Assembly (NCBI GenBank): GCA_963821395.1
Contig: CAWGDY010000042.1
Span: 41,263-105,262 of the forward strand
Reading direction: 5' to 3'
Length of the DNA stretch: 64,000 nt
Source: Vicinamibacterales bacterium
GTDB taxonomy: Bacteria > Acidobacteriota > Vicinamibacteria > Vicinamibacterales > JAMQPK01
Below are positions 47,021 through 53,993 of the stretch, piece after piece; position 1 is the stretch's first letter, and every line of letters begins with the position of its first letter. The notes below the pieces were generated by a model. The model was not told the DNA's origin, made no database searches, and saw only the letters and a list, made by a program, of their open reading frames with translations. The translations under genes and the position numbers were made by a program.

Positions 47021-48467
<1,447 letters not shown>

Positions 48468-48517
48468 ATGCGATCTTTGGGGTCTGACCCCGGCGACCAG
48501 GTAACGGGGCAGACCCG

Positions 48518-48845
48518 TTACGCGTTAAATGAGAGCCCGCACCCGCACGTGCTCTTCGCGTTCGGGTTGTTGAACATGAACCCGCGGCTCATCAGGCTCG
48601 TGTCGTAGTCGAGCTCGGTCCCCTCGAGCAGCGAGTAGCTCTTCGGATCGACGAAAATGCGCGCGCTCGTCTGGGCCGACGAAGATCTGGTCGGTGGCCC
48701 GCGCCTCCCGTTCCCAGGCGAAGGTGTACTCGTACCCGGAACAGCCCCCGGCTTTGAGCCCGATGCGCAGGCCTCCACCCTGTAAGCCGTTCTTGGCTAA
48801 CATCTTGTGGATTTGGTTCGCCGCGTTCTGACTGATGGCAATCAT
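48518..48845 (-). CDS. IscA/SufA/HesB-family Fe-S carrier, one +1 frame break as assembled
   Basis: The N terminus [16 protein letters not shown]...[12 protein letters not shown] is in ORF 48525..48845. The C terminus [18 protein letters not shown]...[11 protein letters not shown] is in ORF 48518..48778. The join is at ~48665. Confidence 0.75.
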
Positions 48846-48864
48846 GAGGTCCCTGACGGAGCCT

Positions 48865-48890
48865 AAACTCCGACCTATTTAGTCCTAGAT
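48865..48890. promoter_or_regulatory. possible Rrf2-family (IscR-like) operator upstream of the suf operon
   Basis: aaactccGACctatttaGTCctagat contains GAC-N7-GTC with an AT-rich centre, like the IscR type-1 core as I remember it. It lies 20-45 nt upstream of the sufA-like start. Confidence 0.25.
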
Positions 48891-48984
48891 TACCACCGGG
48901 TGTCCTTAAAGGTCAAACCAGCTAAGGGAATGTGCCCAAACGGAACTGGGCAGCGGAGCAGTATGGGGAAAAATCCGCACGTCG

Positions 48985-49014
48985 TTGACGAATTGCGAAT
49001 CGCGCTCGTATACT
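48985..49014 (+). promoter_or_regulatory. near-consensus sigma70-type promoter (TTGACG-18-TATACT)
   Basis: TTGACG at 48985-48990, an 18-nt spacer, TATACT at 49009-49014. The predicted start is ~49021. Confidence 0.5.
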
Positions 49015-49023
49015 GCTTTCACG

Positions 49024-49161
49024 ATGTTCGCGCGCACCACCAAACCGATCACTCGCCCCTCGACGACGCTCGGGACGACCCTGAGCCTGTCGAAGGGTCG
49101 AAAGCGGGTTCCGACGAAGGGAACCAGCCGGGTCGGTGGGGTGTGTGCGCTCGACGCGTAA
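49024..49161 (+). CDS. candidate Thr-rich leader peptide (45 aa), essentially leaderless
   Basis: MFARTTKPITRPSTTLGTTLSLSKGRKRVPTKGTSRVGGVCALDA*. It has 9 Thr including three TT pairs. The ATG is about 3 nt after the predicted transcription start. The stop is 25 nt before the terminator stem. Confidence 0.35.
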   Translation: MFARTTKPITRPSTTLGTTLSLSKGRKRVPTKGTSRVGGVCALDA

Positions 49162-49185
49162 CCAGTAACGCAAACGAGATTCAGC

Positions 49186-49222
49186 AACCCGCCGACGCTT
49201 AACAGCCGGCGGGTTTTTTTTT
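49186..49222 (+). terminator. intrinsic terminator upstream of asd
   Basis: Stem aacccgccg / cggcgggtt (49186-49194 / 49207-49215), a 12-nt loop, then a run of 9 T. Confidence 0.75.
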
Positions 49223-49225
49223 GGT

Positions 49226-49257
49226 CCGCCTTCGCGCCTTCGGCGCTTCGGCGCGAC
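49226..49257. repeat. GC-rich repeat, family D (CCGCCTTCGCGCC...CTTCGGCG.GAC)
   Basis: ccgccttcgcgccttcggcgcttcggcgcgac here, versus ccgccttcgcgccgaaggcacttcggcgagac at 54034-54065. Confidence 0.6.
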
Positions 49258-49329
49258 AGGTTGGCAGTAGCGCGGGCTGATTTCGAAACAAGTAGCGCAG
49301 GGCTTTAGCCTGCTCGGAAGGAGTCAGTC

Positions 49330-50388
49330 GTGGTTTCCCGGAGAGTAGACGTCGGCATTCTCGGCGCGACAGGCATGGTGGGACAGCAGTTCATCATGCA
49401 GCTCGCCAATCACCCCTGGTTTCGCATCGCCTGGCTCGGCGCGAGCGAACGGTCCGAAGGCAAGAAGTATCGCGACCTGCCGTGGCGCCTGTCGGTGCCG
49501 CGTCCGCAGGAGGTCGACGACATGGTCGTCGAGGCCGCCGGCAACGGACCCGCCGGCCGCGCGCCACGCCTCATGTTCTCGGGGCTCGACTCGAAAGTGG
49601 CGGGCGATATCGAGCGCGACTTCGCCTCGGCCGGGCATTTCGTCGTCAGCAACGCGCGAAACTTCAGGATGGAGCAGTTCGTGCCGCTGCTCGTCCCTGA
49701 GATAAATCCCGACCATCTCGCGCTCATCCCCCTCCAGCAGCAATCCAAGGGCTGGAAGGGCGCCATCGTCACCAATCCCAACTGCGCCACGGTTCCGCTC
49801 GTCATGGCGCTCGCCGCGGTCCGGGAGTTCGGGCCGGCGCGGGTGACCGTCTCGACGATGCAGGCCGTGTCGGGCGCGGGATATCCCGGTGTTCCGTCGC
49901 TCGACATCCTCGGCAATCTGATCCCCTTCATCGACGGCGAGGAAGAGAAGATCCAGACAGAATCGCTGAAGATCATGGGGACGCTTCAGAGCGATCGCGT
50001 GGTGCCGCACCCGATGGTTGTGAGCGCGCACACCACACGCGTGCCGGTCATCAACGGGCATACCGAAACCATCAGCGTCGCGTTCGAGCGCAAGCCGTCG
50101 CTCGACGAGTTGAAGTCCGCGTTTCGTGCGTTCACAGGCAGGCCTCAGAAACACGGCTGCCCGTCCGCACCCAGACAACCGCTGCAGTTGATGGACGAAT
50201 TGAACCGGCCGCAGCCGCGGCTCGACGTCGAGCGCGAAGGAGGGATGGCGGTGTTCCTCGGGCGCGTGCGGCCGTGCGCCGTTTTCGACTACAAGTTCGT
50301 CGCGCTGGGGCACAATACGGTGCGCGGGGCGGCCGGTGCGGCCGTCCTGAATGCCGAGTTGATGCTGGCGGAGAAGCTGATCGACTGA
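49330..50388 (+). CDS. asd: aspartate-semialdehyde dehydrogenase
   Basis: GTG start after GGAAGGAG. VDVGILGATGMVGQQF..., NPNCATVPLV (active-site Cys), full-length collinearity with Asd. Confidence 0.9.
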   Translation: MVSRRVDVGILGATGMVGQQFIMQLANHPWFRIAWLGASERSEGKKYRDLPWRLSVPRPQEVDDMVVEAAGNGPAGRAPRLMFSGLDSKVAGDIERDFASAGHFVVSNARNFRMEQFVPLLVPEINPDHLALIPLQQQSKGWKGAIVTNPNCATVPLVMALAAVREFGPARVTVSTMQAVSGAGYPGVPSLDILGNLIPFIDGEEEKIQTESLKIMGTLQSDRVVPHPMVVSAHTTRVPVINGHTETISVAFERKPSLDELKSAFRAFTGRPQKHGCPSAPRQPLQLMDELNRPQPRLDVEREGGMAVFLGRVRPCAVFDYKFVALGHNTVRGAAGAAVLNAELMLAEKLID

Positions 50389-50403
50389 TGACTGCCGGCT
50401 TTC

Positions 50404-50447
50404 GGACTTCGGGCTTCTGGCCTGAAGCCCGGGGCCTGAAGCCTGGA
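50404..50447. repeat. hairpin/repeat (GGGCTTC...GAAGCCC, GGCCTGAAGCC x2) between asd and dapB
   Basis: Stem gggcttc (50411-50417) / gaagccc (50424-50430), followed by a second ggcctgaagcc. Confidence 0.5.
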
Positions 50448-50453
50448 GCCCGA

Positions 50454-51137
50454 ATGCGTCTCTTACTCGTGGGTTACGGCCGTATGGGCAAGATCGTCGA
50501 ACGGCTCGCGCCGGAGTACGGCTTCGACGTCGTCGGGTATCTCGACGACACGAACAACATCGGTGGCGCGGGCATCGCGTCCGCGCCGGCCGCCGATGTC
50601 GCCGTGGAGTTCTCGATTCCCGCCGCCGTGGCCGACAACCTGCCCCGGCTGGCGGCCCGCGGGATGAACATCGTGATCGGCACGACCGGCTGGAACGAGC
50701 ACGAGGAGAACATGAAGAAGGTCGCGGCCGATGCCGGGATCGGCGTCGTCGCCGCGCCGAATTTCTCGCTTGGCGTTGCGCTGTTTCAGAGCCTGGCGGA
50801 ACAGGCGGCCAGAATGTTCGCGCCGTATCCGCAGTACGGCGCCTGGATCCACGAAATCCACCACTCGGCCAAGAAAGACGCGCCGTCGGGGACCGCGATC
50901 GCGTTGCAGCAGGGCATGCGGAAGGCTGGATACGTTCACCACATCGACATGGCGGCGAGCCGCGCGGGCTCGGTGCCCGGGACGCATACGATCGGCTTCG
51001 ACGGACCCTTCGAAACGGTTACGATGACGCACACCAACCGCGATCGCGCGGCGTTCGCGCAAGGCGCCCTGCAGGCGGCGAAGTGGGTACACGGGAAGCG
51101 CGGTTGGTTTACGATTCGAGATGTACTGGGGATTTAG
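50454..51137 (+). CDS. dapB: 4-hydroxy-tetrahydrodipicolinate reductase
   Basis: ATG 50454 (MRLLLVGYGRMGKIV...) inside ORF 50274..51137. ...EIHHSAKKDAPSGTA... is the DapB signature. Confidence 0.85.
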   Translation: MRLLLVGYGRMGKIVERLAPEYGFDVVGYLDDTNNIGGAGIASAPAADVAVEFSIPAAVADNLPRLAARGMNIVIGTTGWNEHEENMKKVAADAGIGVVAAPNFSLGVALFQSLAEQAARMFAPYPQYGAWIHEIHHSAKKDAPSGTAIALQQGMRKAGYVHHIDMAASRAGSVPGTHTIGFDGPFETVTMTHTNRDRAAFAQGALQAAKWVHGKRGWFTIRDVLGI

Positions 51138-51207
51138 CCGGGTCTGAAGAGCAAGACCCGGCCTACGTACCGGATGTAGGGCGGGTCCTTGCTCTTCGGA
51201 CCCGCCG
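51138..51207. repeat. palindromic element, family C, between dapB and dapA
   Basis: ccgggtctgaagagcaagacccggcc ... gggcgggtccttgctcttcggacccgcc. The arms are near reverse complements and share GTAGGGCGGGTCC with 18297-18328. Confidence 0.7.
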
Positions 51208-51214
51208 GAGCATT

Positions 51215-52123
51215 ATGAGAACACCATTTACCGGCGTCGGCACCGCACTGGTAACCCCCTTCACCACGACGGCCATCCTCGACGAGGACGGCGTTCGCCG
51301 GCTGGCGCGGCGTCAGATCGACGAAGGCACCCATTTTCTCGTTCCATGCGGCACGACGGGGGAAAGCCCGACACTGTCCGAGGACGAGCGAACCCGCATC
51401 GTCGAGATCTGCGTCGAGGAAGCAGCCGGCAAAGTGCCGGTGCTGGCCGGCGCGGGGGGATATGACACTCGCGAGGTCATTCACGCGGCGCGCGAAATGG
51501 AGCGTGCCGGCGCGAATGGCCTGCTGTCGGTCACACCCTATTACAACAAGCCCACGCCCGACGGTCTCTACCAGCACTACAAAGCCATTGCCGAAAGCAC
51601 CTCGCTGCCGATCGTCGTGTACAACGTTCCCGGCCGAACCGGCTGCAACGTCGATCCCGCGACGCTCGTGAAGCTCGCCTCGATCCCCAACATCATCGGC
51701 GTCAAGGAGGCCTCGGGGAACATCCAGCAGATGTGCGAAGTGTGCCGGGCCGTACCGCCCGACTTCATCGTGCTGTCCGGCGACGACGCCGTCACGCTTC
51801 CGTTGATGGCGGTCGGTGGCCGCGGCGTGATCTCCGTCGTCTCGAACGAAGTCCCGCGCGAGATGTCCCGTATGGTCGAGGCCGCCGAGCGTGGCGACTT
51901 CGAGGCCGCACGAAAGATTCATACGGCGCTGCTGCCGCTGATGCTCGTCAACTTCGTCGAATCCAATCCCGTTCCCGTCAAGACGGCGATGGCGGCCATG
52001 GGGCTTCTCGAGGAGGCCTACCGGCTGCCGATGGTGCCGCCGCGTCCGGAATCGCGCGCGAAAATCCTGACCGTGCTCAAGGAGATGGGTCTGCTGAACG
52101 TGTCGGCCAAGGTGAGCGCGTGA
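51215..52123 (+). CDS. dapA: 4-hydroxy-tetrahydrodipicolinate synthase
   Basis: ATG 51215 (MRTPFTGVGTALVTPF...). GTTGESPTLS, YNVPGRTG, IIGVKEASG. Confidence 0.9.
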   Translation: MRTPFTGVGTALVTPFTTTAILDEDGVRRLARRQIDEGTHFLVPCGTTGESPTLSEDERTRIVEICVEEAAGKVPVLAGAGGYDTREVIHAAREMERAGANGLLSVTPYYNKPTPDGLYQHYKAIAESTSLPIVVYNVPGRTGCNVDPATLVKLASIPNIIGVKEASGNIQQMCEVCRAVPPDFIVLSGDDAVTLPLMAVGGRGVISVVSNEVPREMSRMVEAAERGDFEAARKIHTALLPLMLVNFVESNPVPVKTAMAAMGLLEEAYRLPMVPPRPESRAKILTVLKEMGLLNVSAKVSA

Positions 52124-52980
52124 GCGAGACCGCGACGCGGCAGTTAGCGAACGACATCGAACGGCTGTATCAGCAGGGCGTTTCCGCGGACAAGAGCGAG
52201 AGCCGATCCGTGTTCGCGCAGCTTCGCGAAGAGCTGTCGGCCGGGCGCGTACGTGCGGCCGAGCCCGATGCATCGGCGCCCACCGGGTGGCGCGTCAACA
52301 CCTGGGTGAAGCAGGGCATCCTCGTCGGCTTCCGCTGCGGCGATCTCGTGGATGTGTCGGTGGACGGCGGGCGCTGGTTTTTCGGCGACAAGGACACGCT
52401 GCCGCTCAAGAAGATGACGACTGGAATGGGCGTGCGGGTCGTCCCTGGCGGCTCGTCTATTCGAGACGGCGCGTACGTCGCGAAAGGCGTGATTTGCGTG
52501 CCGCCGATGTACATCAACATCGGTGCGTACGTCGACGAATCGAGCCTCGTGGATTCCCACGCCCTCGTGGGATCGTGCGCGCAGGTCGGCAAGCGCGTAC
52601 ACATCAGCGCCGGTGCCCAGATCGGTGGCGTGATCGAACCGGTGGGCGCTATTCCGGTCATCATCGAAGACGATGTGCTGGTCGGCGGCAACACGGGCAT
52701 TTACGAAGGCGCCGTCATCAAGCGCCGCGCCGTCATCGGCGCCGGTACGATTTTGACGGGTTCCACTCCGATCTACGATTTGCCCCAGGGACGCGTCATC
52801 AAGCCCGAAAGCGACGCCCCGCTGGTCGTGCCCGAAGGTGCCGTCGTCGTGCCGGGTTCGAGAGCCGTCACGCAAGGCATGGGACCGCAGTGGGGTCTCA
52901 GTCTGTCCACACCCGTCATCGTGAAATATCGCGACGAGAAAACCGACGCGCGAACGAATCTCGAGCAATGGGTCCGTTGA
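52120..52980 (+). CDS. dapD: tetrahydrodipicolinate N-succinyltransferase
   Basis: GTG 52120 overlaps the dapA TGA (GTGA). Hexapeptide-repeat region ...SHALVGSCAQVGKRVHISAGAQIGGVIEPVGAIPVIIEDDVLVGGNTGIYEG... Confidence 0.85.
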   Translation: MSETATRQLANDIERLYQQGVSADKSESRSVFAQLREELSAGRVRAAEPDASAPTGWRVNTWVKQGILVGFRCGDLVDVSVDGGRWFFGDKDTLPLKKMTTGMGVRVVPGGSSIRDGAYVAKGVICVPPMYINIGAYVDESSLVDSHALVGSCAQVGKRVHISAGAQIGGVIEPVGAIPVIIEDDVLVGGNTGIYEGAVIKRRAVIGAGTILTGSTPIYDLPQGRVIKPESDAPLVVPEGAVVVPGSRAVTQGMGPQWGLSLSTPVIVKYRDEKTDARTNLEQWVR

Positions 52981-53993
52981 CCGACCTGACAGATGTCGTA
53001 TCGGTGACTCGCGGGCTGGTGGACATCGATTCCACCACCGGCCGCGAGGGCGAGTGCATGCAGTGGATGGCGGCGCTGCTGAGCGACGCGGGCTACGGCG
53101 TCGTCGAGCAGGTGGTGGACGGTCCACGCCGCAACATCTATGCGGGCTTCGGCAAAGCCGACGTGGTGCTGTCGACCCACCTCGACTGCGTCCCTCCGTT
53201 CTTTCCCAGTCATCTCGACGGTGGCGCGCTCTTCGGCCGCGGCTCGTGCGACGCCAAAGGGATTGCCGCCTGCCAGATTGCGGCCGCCGAAATGCTGCGG
53301 CGTGAGGGGATCACGAACGTCGGGCTGTTGTTCGTCGTCGGCGAAGAGCGGGGCAGCGACGGCGCCAAAAGCGCCCAGGTGATCGCGCCGGGCTCGAAGT
53401 TCCTCGTCAACGGCGAGCCCACCGACAACCGGCTCGGCATCGGCACGCGCGGGGCGCTTCGCTACAACCTGCGCGCGAAGGGCCGCGCCGCGCATTCGTC
53501 GTTTCCGGAACTGGGCGAGTCGGCCATCGACAAGCTCATCGACGCGCTGATCGCGCTGCGCACGATCGAGATGCCCGAGCATCCCGTACTCGGCCGCACC
53601 CACTACACGATCGGCCTCATCAAAGGTGGTGTGGCGCCGAACGTCGTGCCGTTCGAGGCGGAAGCCGAAGTGATGTTTCGAACCGTCGCCGACGTCGATG
53701 GGCTGCGTGCGTCGCTGACGAAGCTGACGTCGCTGGTGACGCTCGAGGAGATTCTCGATGTGCCGCCGGTGATGATGCCGACGGTGCCTGGCTTCGACAC
53801 CGCCACATTTCCGTACACCACCGACATTCCCTTTCTCACCAACTGGGGCACGCCGCTTCTCTACGGTCCTGGCTCCATTCACGTCGCGCACACCGACAAC
53901 GAGCACGTGAAGATCGCGGACCTGAAGCGTGCGGTCGAGGATTACGCGAAGATCGCCAGGCACCTGCTGTCGCAAGGCCAGACAGGCGACTAG
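52968..53993 (+). CDS. M20-family peptidase, probable succinyl-diaminopimelate desuccinylase
   Basis: ATG 52968 overlaps the dapD end by 13 nt. ...VLSTHLDCVP..., GRGSCDAKG, VVGEERGSDG. The DapE assignment rests on operon context. Confidence 0.7.
   Translation: MGPLTDLTDVVSVTRGLVDIDSTTGREGECMQWMAALLSDAGYGVVEQVVDGPRRNIYAGFGKADVVLSTHLDCVPPFFPSHLDGGALFGRGSCDAKGIAACQIAAAEMLRREGITNVGLLFVVGEERGSDGAKSAQVIAPGSKFLVNGEPTDNRLGIGTRGALRYNLRAKGRAAHSSFPELGESAIDKLIDALIALRTIEMPEHPVLGRTHYTIGLIKGGVAPNVVPFEAEAEVMFRTVADVDGLRASLTKLTSLVTLEEILDVPPVMMPTVPGFDTATFPYTTDIPFLTNWGTPLLYGPGSIHVAHTDNEHVKIADLKRAVEDYAKIARHLLSQGQTGD

Follow-up and report, generated by a model that had tools for sequence, protein, structure and literature searches.

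How transcription of the asd-dapBADE operon is controlled is the question raised by a 64,000-nucleotide stretch of contig CAWGDY010000042.1 from a Vicinamibacterales bacterium (assembly GCA_963821395.1; this whole stretch is called the window), in which a promoter, a short Thr-rich open reading frame (ORF) and an intrinsic terminator precede asd. The first-pass annotation of this DNA had treated a leader-peptide attenuator and a ligand-sensing RNA as equally valid readings of the element; the comparative evidence favors the former. Judging from sequence and comparison, we consider it likely that the element subjects asd-dapBADE to ribosome-mediated (leader-peptide) transcription attenuation. 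The promoter, the ORF frame, the stop position, the terminator and the complementary RNA segments are conserved among relatives, and the composition of the leader is linked to the content of the operon.

Several features of leader-peptide attenuators were found together at this locus. A short 5' ORF keeps its start, stop position and frame in sequence comparison, and an intrinsic terminator lies between this ORF and the first structural gene. Codons for pathway end products are enriched, these being Thr and Lys or, before asd-aspartokinase-homoserine dehydrogenase (asd-ask-hom) operons, Met. Codons 5-10 lie inside RNA segment 1 (49028-49050), with predicted masking of that segment. Pairings between segments 1 and 2, 2 and 3, and 3 and 4 (1:2, 2:3 and 3:4) are predicted and positionally conserved, with moderate covariation support for 1:2 and none for the invariant 2:3. 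The comparison covered about 65 related loci from Vicinamibacterales, other Vicinamibacteria, Holophagales and metagenomes, individual loci being given L numbers; the close set comprises 23 sequences, counts of structural pairs were made on 35 sequences, and the position of the antiterminator duplex was examined in 40 leaders.

A conserved leader upstream of asd

Scanning 48000-50000 for sigma-70-like sites returned a single promoter, the TTGACG-18-TATACT site already reported at first pass, against 0.2 sites in shuffled sequence; the same scan found no promoter-like site in the 49223-49329 spacer. The -35 and -10 boxes are separated by 18 nucleotides, and the ATG of the leader ORF at 49024 lies 9 nucleotides past the -10 box. 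This ATG lies 7-10 nucleotides past the -10 box in 23 of 23 close sequences, and some distant leaders have a GTG start 10 nucleotides after TATAGT. Because the -10 box ends 7-11 nucleotides before the AUG (GUG in a few leaders), no Shine-Dalgarno sequence is possible for the leader ORF. The promoter geometry predicts a transcription start at about 49021-49024 and thus a leaderless leader mRNA.

The ORF runs from the ATG at 49024 to a TAA at 49159-49161. Codon counts bore out the earlier description of 45 codons with nine Thr codons (T5, T6, T10, T14, T15, T18, T19, T31 and T34, including three TT pairs) and four Lys codons (K7, K24, K27 and K32). When the asd upstream regions of relatives were compared, as the annotation had proposed, the start, stop and frame of the ORF proved to be kept through many insertions and deletions. 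The stop codon occupies one aligned position in the close sequences (n = 23), with TAA, TAG and TGA interchanging, and across related loci it lies 23-34 nucleotides ahead of the terminator hairpin. Ten ORF lengths occur in the close clade (87, 90, 93, 96, 99, 114, 135, 138, 141 and 150 nucleotides), each divisible by three; the spacer that follows the stop varies by single nucleotides, with all lengths between 21 and 26 represented. The region between the conserved segments carries insertions and deletions of 3-57 nucleotides, always in frame, among them insertions of 21-57 nucleotides. At one locus (L020) a -2/-1 frameshift pair restores the frame, and at another (L055) the conserved GUCGG core is read in a different frame. 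On account of these two loci, constraint appears to act on being translated and not on the peptide sequence; leader peptides diverge freely across clades, save where the nucleotides themselves are conserved. The annotation had named a conserved RNA structure without a conserved ORF as the pattern that would point to a riboswitch; that pattern was not seen, as ORF start, stop and frame are kept in relatives.

The terminator described as a 9-bp GC stem followed by T9 stands in position and in its T9 tract, but the wording was loose: AACCCGCCG (49186-49194) pairs with CGGCGGGUU (49207-49215) through 7 G-C and 2 A-U pairs, with a 2-nucleotide bulge and 3 apical pairs, before the T9 run. This is the only strong hairpin followed by at least six T on either strand of the 64-kb window, and canonical terminators of this type could be scarce in this genome and kept for regulatory roles. 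No other combination of promoter, leaderless ORF and terminator was found in the window, and the same scans located no Ile/Leu/Val-rich ORF followed by a terminator, such as the ilv attenuator to which the annotation had referred. The distance from the terminator to asd, which starts with GTG at 49330, measured 107 nucleotides and not 108 as first given. In seven relatives (L015, L020, L025, L030, L033, L035 and L051) the terminator ends 15-27 nucleotides ahead of asd, and the asd Shine-Dalgarno sequence follows directly after the T-run. A separate promoter cannot fit in 15-27 nucleotides, and asd in these genomes would therefore be transcribed only by read-through. The divergent intergenic region (48846-49329) is bounded upstream by a minus-strand IscA-like gene (48525-48845), divergent from asd, and so the terminator can end only the leader transcript.

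Association of the leader with asd is strict. The Asd protein of the window is 96-98% identical to those of several Vicinamibacterales metagenome-assembled genomes (Acidobacteriota), and the leader was found 5' of asd in all 22 of 22 species-level relatives with Asd 81-98% identical. Recognizable homologs extend to more distant Vicinamibacteria (Asd 57-65% identical) and to two Holophagales, while the neighbor upstream of the leader varies. A metagenome scan with a pattern built from the leader alone, ignoring asd, gave 93 matches, 26 with a following T-run and 67 without. Asd was the next gene in 25 of the 25 T-run matches with enough downstream DNA, but in only one of the 67 matches that had no T-run. 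A profile built from the leader gave one match per locus in 1.13 Mb, always just 5' of asd, with one in the window. Among 5.8 billion proteins, only five gene calls, all unnamed, match the leader ORF.

Predicted alternative RNA structures

The RNA from 49015 to 49225 (211 nucleotides) has a predicted minimum free energy (MFE) of -99.5 kcal/mol (z = -4.8), and none of 200 shuffled sequences was as stable. In the predicted free fold, a long-range helix between the ORF start and the ORF end (1:2) surrounds two hairpins, with the terminator downstream. Helices 1 and 2 are paired in 82-89% of cells, with 8 pairs changed on both sides among the 35 sequences. Changes in hairpin 2 are mostly from G-C to G-U, with one pair changed on both sides. 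The terminated-state structure as a whole (1:2, hairpin 2 and terminator) is paired in 90.9% of cells in the same sequences and has 9 pairs, or 21 cells, changed on both sides. No shuffle of 500 matched this cell count or the covariation score, and slid controls reached at most 7 cells. Covariation support for helix 1:2 is moderate. From the close clade RNAalifold recovered no more than hairpin 2, the terminator and a local hairpin in segment 2; the variable insertion caused it to miss the long-range 1:2 helix.

The antiterminator pairing had been proposed between 49132-49140 and 49188-49196, and GTCGGTGGG is complementary to CCCGCCGAC at these positions as described. The ninth pair (G49140-C49188), however, is specific to the window, the helix being 8 bp in relatives, and it is the core pairing of GUCGGUGG with CCGCCGAC that nearly all sequences retain. 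Its distance from the stop codon is fixed across the family: in 29 of 40 leaders, the strongest duplex with the terminator arm ends 18-24 nucleotides short of the end of the ORF.

To represent RNA in which segment 3 has been made and segment 4 is absent, truncated RNAs were folded; these are equilibrium and not kinetic predictions. Helix 1:2 persists in 27 of 35 free RNAs that stop short of segment 4; in the truncated free RNA of the window, the antiterminator can be imposed only at a cost of +7.1 kcal/mol. Masking of nucleotides 1-34, which mimics a ribosome stalled on codons 5-7, is predicted to leave all 35 of 35 in the 8-bp antiterminator. A footprint masked at A-site codons 5-10 likewise predicts the antiterminator in the five sequences simulated, and the result at codon 12 is mixed. 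Placing the ribosome at the stop codon is predicted to return full-length RNA to 1:2 plus the terminator. Folding of the alternative structures, a check suggested at first pass, is thus consistent with a 1:2 / 2:3 / 3:4 switch. In distant leaders, ribosome positions simulated with the 3' arm not yet made gave no discrimination, as a free 5' arm pairs with almost anything.

Leader composition and the downstream genes

Leaders ahead of asd-dapBADE or asd-ask-dapB-dapA (dap-type leaders; 61 distinct peptides) contain 15.7% Thr and 8.0% Lys, compared with 4.6% and 3.5% in the proteins of the window, or enrichments of 3.4-fold for Thr and 2.3-fold for Lys. Thr and Lys are both plausible signals, since Asd serves both branches and the operon makes diaminopimelate (DAP) and lysine. 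Although the nine Thr codons of the window leader were counted correctly at first pass, four of them lie in a non-conserved 45-nucleotide insertion (hairpin 1) that many close relatives lack, and these four are probably incidental. In five close relatives an extra Thr codon (ACT or ACG) is inserted in the Thr run, where it bulges helix 1:2. Some mid-clade leaders (for example L025, L030 and L035) have few Thr codons and take their Lys codons only from RKR motifs.

A different composition was found ahead of asd-ask-hom operons. In L052, L053, L054, L056 and L057, Met-rich ORFs predicted to be leaderless (AAMRMMAMRMTSIGGGAVSGP) stand about 60-230 nucleotides upstream of asd, with the terminator and antiterminator layout of the window. 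Leaders of asd-ask-hom operons carry AAMRMMAMRMTSIGGG, with the run AAMRMMAMRM, and contain 16% Met (initiator left out) and 0% Lys. In two Holophagales leaders (L066 and L080), about 100-250 nucleotides upstream of asd, the run RKRTKTTMKRT brings together codons for Lys, Thr and Met, all three end products of the pathway, and may provide multivalent attenuation of asd. In the compared leaders, composition tracks operon content.

Proposed mechanism

Transcription would begin at the AUG at 49024 or within 3 nucleotides of it, and the leader ORF would be translated as a leaderless mRNA. With no ribosome present, or with a ribosome that has run through to the stop codon, segment 1 (49028-49050) would pair with segment 2 (49131-49154); the terminator at 49186-49222 would then form and transcription would halt 107 nucleotides short of asd. 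A shortage of charged tRNA-Thr and/or tRNA-Lys would make the ribosome stall at codons 5-10 (T T K P I T), within segment 1. The segment 2 core GUCGGUGG would be freed to pair with CCGCCGAC of the terminator 5' arm as that arm emerges, the terminator would be blocked, and RNA polymerase would continue into asd. The annotation had considered it unlike the textbook case that the antiterminator strand lies inside the ORF. This presents no difficulty: Thr/Lys codons 5-10 lie in segment 1, and for that reason a stalled ribosome would free the antiterminator strand. What we infer in this scheme is where transcription starts, that the ORF is translated and the ribosome stalls on it, and which amino acid or acids are sensed.

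Several observations weigh against the attenuator model. Helix 2:3 is invariant in the close clade and so shows no covariation. Antiterminator duplexes are only slightly more stable than those of mononucleotide shuffles (mean z = -1.5), and a clade-swap test of 2:3 gave no discrimination, all arms being G+C-rich and alike. The antiterminator is already favored in 8 of 35 free truncated RNAs, and the local hairpin within segment 2 returned by RNAalifold could compete with that segment. Enrichment of Thr and Lys is entangled with a pairing constraint, ACCACC being paired with GGUGGU, and the leaders compared for composition are phylogenetically related. The nucleotide-level conservation of CGAAAGCGG and hairpin 2 is unexplained by the attenuator model.

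Alternative explanations

The conservation of CGAAAGCGG, which encodes R26 K27 R28, leads to a broader reading of the attenuator. The motif shows no synonymous variation and persists where the frame differs (L020), and GCGGGUU (49104-49110), which is identical to the end of the terminator 3' arm, could pair with AACCCGC (49186-49192). The attenuator might be a composite sensor in which CGAAAGCGG and hairpin 2 form a second input in addition to codon-dependent stalling, or the abundant terminated RNA of about 200 nucleotides or its peptide might act in trans, like rnTrpL and peTrpL; we regard this as unlikely. Candidates for a second input could include a bound factor or ligand, a programmed pause of the ribosome or RNA polymerase, and competition of GCGGGUU for the terminator arm. 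A rare-codon role for CGA-AAG-CGG was ruled out separately, CGA and CGG making up 22% and 20% of Arg codons here.

An attenuator coupled to translation but unspecific for amino acid would report ribosome availability or transcription-translation coupling, with the Thr and Lys codons a by-product of pairing. The segment 1 Thr/Lys codons are indeed also held by the GGUGGU pairing, and the mid-clade leaders described above are Thr-poor with Lys confined to RKR motifs. Such a device is nonetheless improbable, as the change to a run of 5-6 Met codons coincides exactly with asd-ask-hom operons, the Holophagales leaders join Lys, Thr and Met, a Thr codon was inserted in five relatives despite the helix bulge it causes, and both Thr and Lys are enriched at the levels given above.

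It is more doubtful still that the element is a riboswitch or a protein-binding leader RNA, in which a ligand (e.g., lysine or another aspartate-family metabolite) or a protein would pick between terminator and antiterminator and the ORF would be incidental. The strength of the fold, the conservation of CGAAAGCGG and hairpin 2 at the nucleotide level, without synonymous variation and even where the frame has changed, and the occurrence in other Acidobacteriota of asd-containing operons under a SAM riboswitch would fit such an RNA. However, no Rfam family matches at gathering score, and no lysine, SAM or other riboswitch matches at E <= 10. The interior accepts indels only in frame, the start codon, stop position and -10-to-ATG spacing are conserved, the enriched residues switch with operon type, and CGAAAGCGG is missing from the Met-type leaders, in which the ORF and the terminator and antiterminator layout are nonetheless retained.

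Equally doubtful is an independent small gene or small RNA beside asd (a micro-protein or trans-acting RNA), with an asd promoter in the 107-nucleotide spacer. The unit is self-contained from promoter to terminator (about 200 nucleotides), the spacer in the window is long enough for a promoter, and attenuator-derived RNAs and leader peptides can act in trans in other bacteria, for instance rnTrpL and peTrpL of Sinorhizobium (PMC6614838, PMC7298713); but the spacer shrinks to 15-27 nucleotides in several genomes with the Shine-Dalgarno sequence right after the T-run and holds no promoter-like site in the window, the element is tied strictly to asd but not to its upstream neighbor, the peptide sequence is not conserved across clades, and an open frame on the antisense strand has no conserved boundaries. 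That antisense frame was considered as a gene and rejected: frame -1 is open throughout the set of 35 sequences, its extent varies between 32 and 279 codons, and its limits in many relatives coincide exactly with those of the leader. Its boundaries are not conserved, and we therefore attribute it to composition.

Relationship to known regulatory systems

The Rfam/Infernal scan recommended at first pass rejected the known leader and riboswitch families: the window and 20 related loci gave no match at gathering score, and at E <= 10 the region 48840-49340 gave no match to the lysine riboswitch (RF00168, a five-helix junction), SAM or any other riboswitch. The lack of visible L-box hallmarks reported by the annotation is thereby confirmed. 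The best sub-threshold match was Trp_leader (RF00513), at 19.7 bits versus the 41 needed, and was driven by the terminator. The asd RNA motif, which we take to be RF01732, was absent from the Rfam matches at both thresholds.

In E. coli, thrL is a short Thr-rich leader ORF followed by an intrinsic terminator with alternative pairings, and places aspartate-family genes under the control of tRNA charging and ribosome stalling. The window leader resembles this system (RF00506, Thr_leader) in its Thr-rich short ORF, its terminator and its aspartate-family target genes. In contrast, thrL is led by a Shine-Dalgarno sequence, senses Thr and Ile, and controls thrABC and not asd-dap, whereas the window leader is predicted to be leaderless, carries Thr and Lys codons, belongs to a different phylum and gives no RF00506 match at E <= 10. 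The trp attenuator (RF00513) shares the four-segment logic (1:2, 2:3 and 3:4) and a stop codon near segment 2, and differs in its codons and controlled genes. SAM (RF00162) and lysine (RF00168) riboswitches are functional analogs that bind the metabolite directly and need no ORF. Attenuation by a Lys-codon leader peptide was reportedly described by Tsubouchi et al. in J Biol Chem in 2005 for the lysine biosynthetic cluster of Thermus thermophilus; this case serves as a lead only, and there the pathway runs through alpha-aminoadipate, not asd-dap, with unrelated sequences.

Leaderless leader peptides have been predicted in Deinococcus deserti, where transcripts starting at a 5' AUG encode short peptides in which the relevant amino acid is abundant, upstream of amino-acid biosynthesis and tRNA synthetase genes, with 14 predicted to function in transcription attenuation (PMC4007540). 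The window leader is likewise short, rich in relevant amino acids and predicted to be leaderless, although D. deserti belongs to another phylum and its target genes appear to be different. The starts in D. deserti were mapped, whereas the start in the window is deduced from promoter geometry. In mycobacteria, stalling of ribosomes on end-product codons in leaderless polycysteine short ORFs remodels the downstream RNA; this was demonstrated for Cys and exposes a sequestered ribosome-binding site, controlling translation (10.1101/834739). The likeness lies in a leaderless sensory short ORF. The mycobacterial ORFs use Cys and act on translation, while the window leader has Thr/Lys codons, and its canonical intrinsic terminator implies that transcription is what is controlled.

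No report of a leader peptide for asd, or from Acidobacteria, turned up in searches of the literature. The element thus appears to represent a known kind of control, with trp/thr-like attenuation logic, in an undescribed family that has no Rfam model. In the Acidobacteriota, a soil phylum that is dominant and seldom cultured, almost nothing is known of how genes are regulated. If the attenuator model is correct, an unannotated cis-regulatory family governs the branch-point enzyme Asd and the DAP/lysine genes, and classical terminator-based attenuation is run from a leaderless mRNA. The leaders would form a natural experiment, a single scaffold being furnished with Thr/Lys codons, Met codons, or codons for Lys, Thr and Met together, depending on which genes follow. 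Were the composite-sensor or trans-acting explanation correct, one RNA scaffold would have been re-coded among these same three codon sets as operon content changed. Annotators gain a signature to model, and asd-dap expression is flagged as dependent on terminator read-through.

Feature coordinates and other observations

Table 1. Positions of the features of the putative asd-dapBADE leader in the window.
Feature	Position	Strand	Basis or remark
-35 box, TTGACG	48985..48990	+	Part of the sole promoter-like site in 48000-50000; TTGAC at same spacing in relatives
-10 box, TATACT	49009..49014	+	TATACT or close variant 7-11 nucleotides 5' of ATG in all leaders found
Leader ORF, predicted leaderless, 45 codons, MFARTTKPITRPSTTLGTTLSLSKGRKRVPTKGTSRVGGVCALDA	49024..49161	+	Kept in 23/23 close loci
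Segment 1, 5' strand of long-range helix (anti-antiterminator)	49028..49050	+	MFE fold
Candidate regulatory codons T5 T6 K7 P8 I9 T10 (ACC ACC AAA CCG ATC ACT)	49036..49053	+	Thr/Lys cluster at codons 5-12 kept in clade
Hairpin 1, 45-nucleotide in-frame insertion	49054..49100	+	Absent from L001, L002, L004 and others
CGAAAGCGG, codons R26 K27 R28, invariant nucleotides	49099..49107	+	AAGCGG in nearly all dap-type leaders, out to Holophagales
Hairpin 2 (GCGGGUUCC...GGAACCAGC)	49104..49128	+	98.9% of cells paired
Segment 2, core GUCGGUGG at 49132-49139; pairs with segment 1 or terminator 5' arm	49131..49154	+	Folding, comparison
Predicted small hairpin around stop TAA (49159-49161)	49156..49171	+	MFE fold and masked folds
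Intrinsic terminator: 5' arm 49186-49199 (segment 3), 3' arm 49204-49215 (segment 4), T9 49214-49222	49186..49222	+	Stem invariant in 35 sequences
Spacer from terminator to asd, with asd Shine-Dalgarno GGAAGGAG at 49316-49323	49223..49329	+	Read from sequence
Putatively controlled operon: asd (49330-50388), dapB, dapA, dapD, dapE	49330..53993	+	Pfam domains; gene order common to relatives

The spacer between terminator and asd is not conserved among relatives, where its length ranges from 15 to 196 nucleotides. Hairpin 1 has an 89%-identical copy at an unrelated intergenic site in a distant genome (L021:1453-1499), and BLAST found none elsewhere in the window. The insertion, which left the frame intact, probably represents a small dispersed palindromic repeat and not a part of the core.

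In two other Acidobacteriota, SAM riboswitches (RF00162, 74-77 bits) were found at L026:538-637 and L029:1430-1529. On the strand of asd and 1.5-2.5 kb ahead of it, each heads an operon that ends in asd; asd itself directly follows a coding region there, without a leader. This suggests that the asd regulator has been swapped between lineages, a SAM riboswitch in some and the leader in others. At a further locus (L047), tandem repeats of about 100 nucleotides stand directly upstream of asd, in the place of the leader, within the 330 nucleotides upstream.

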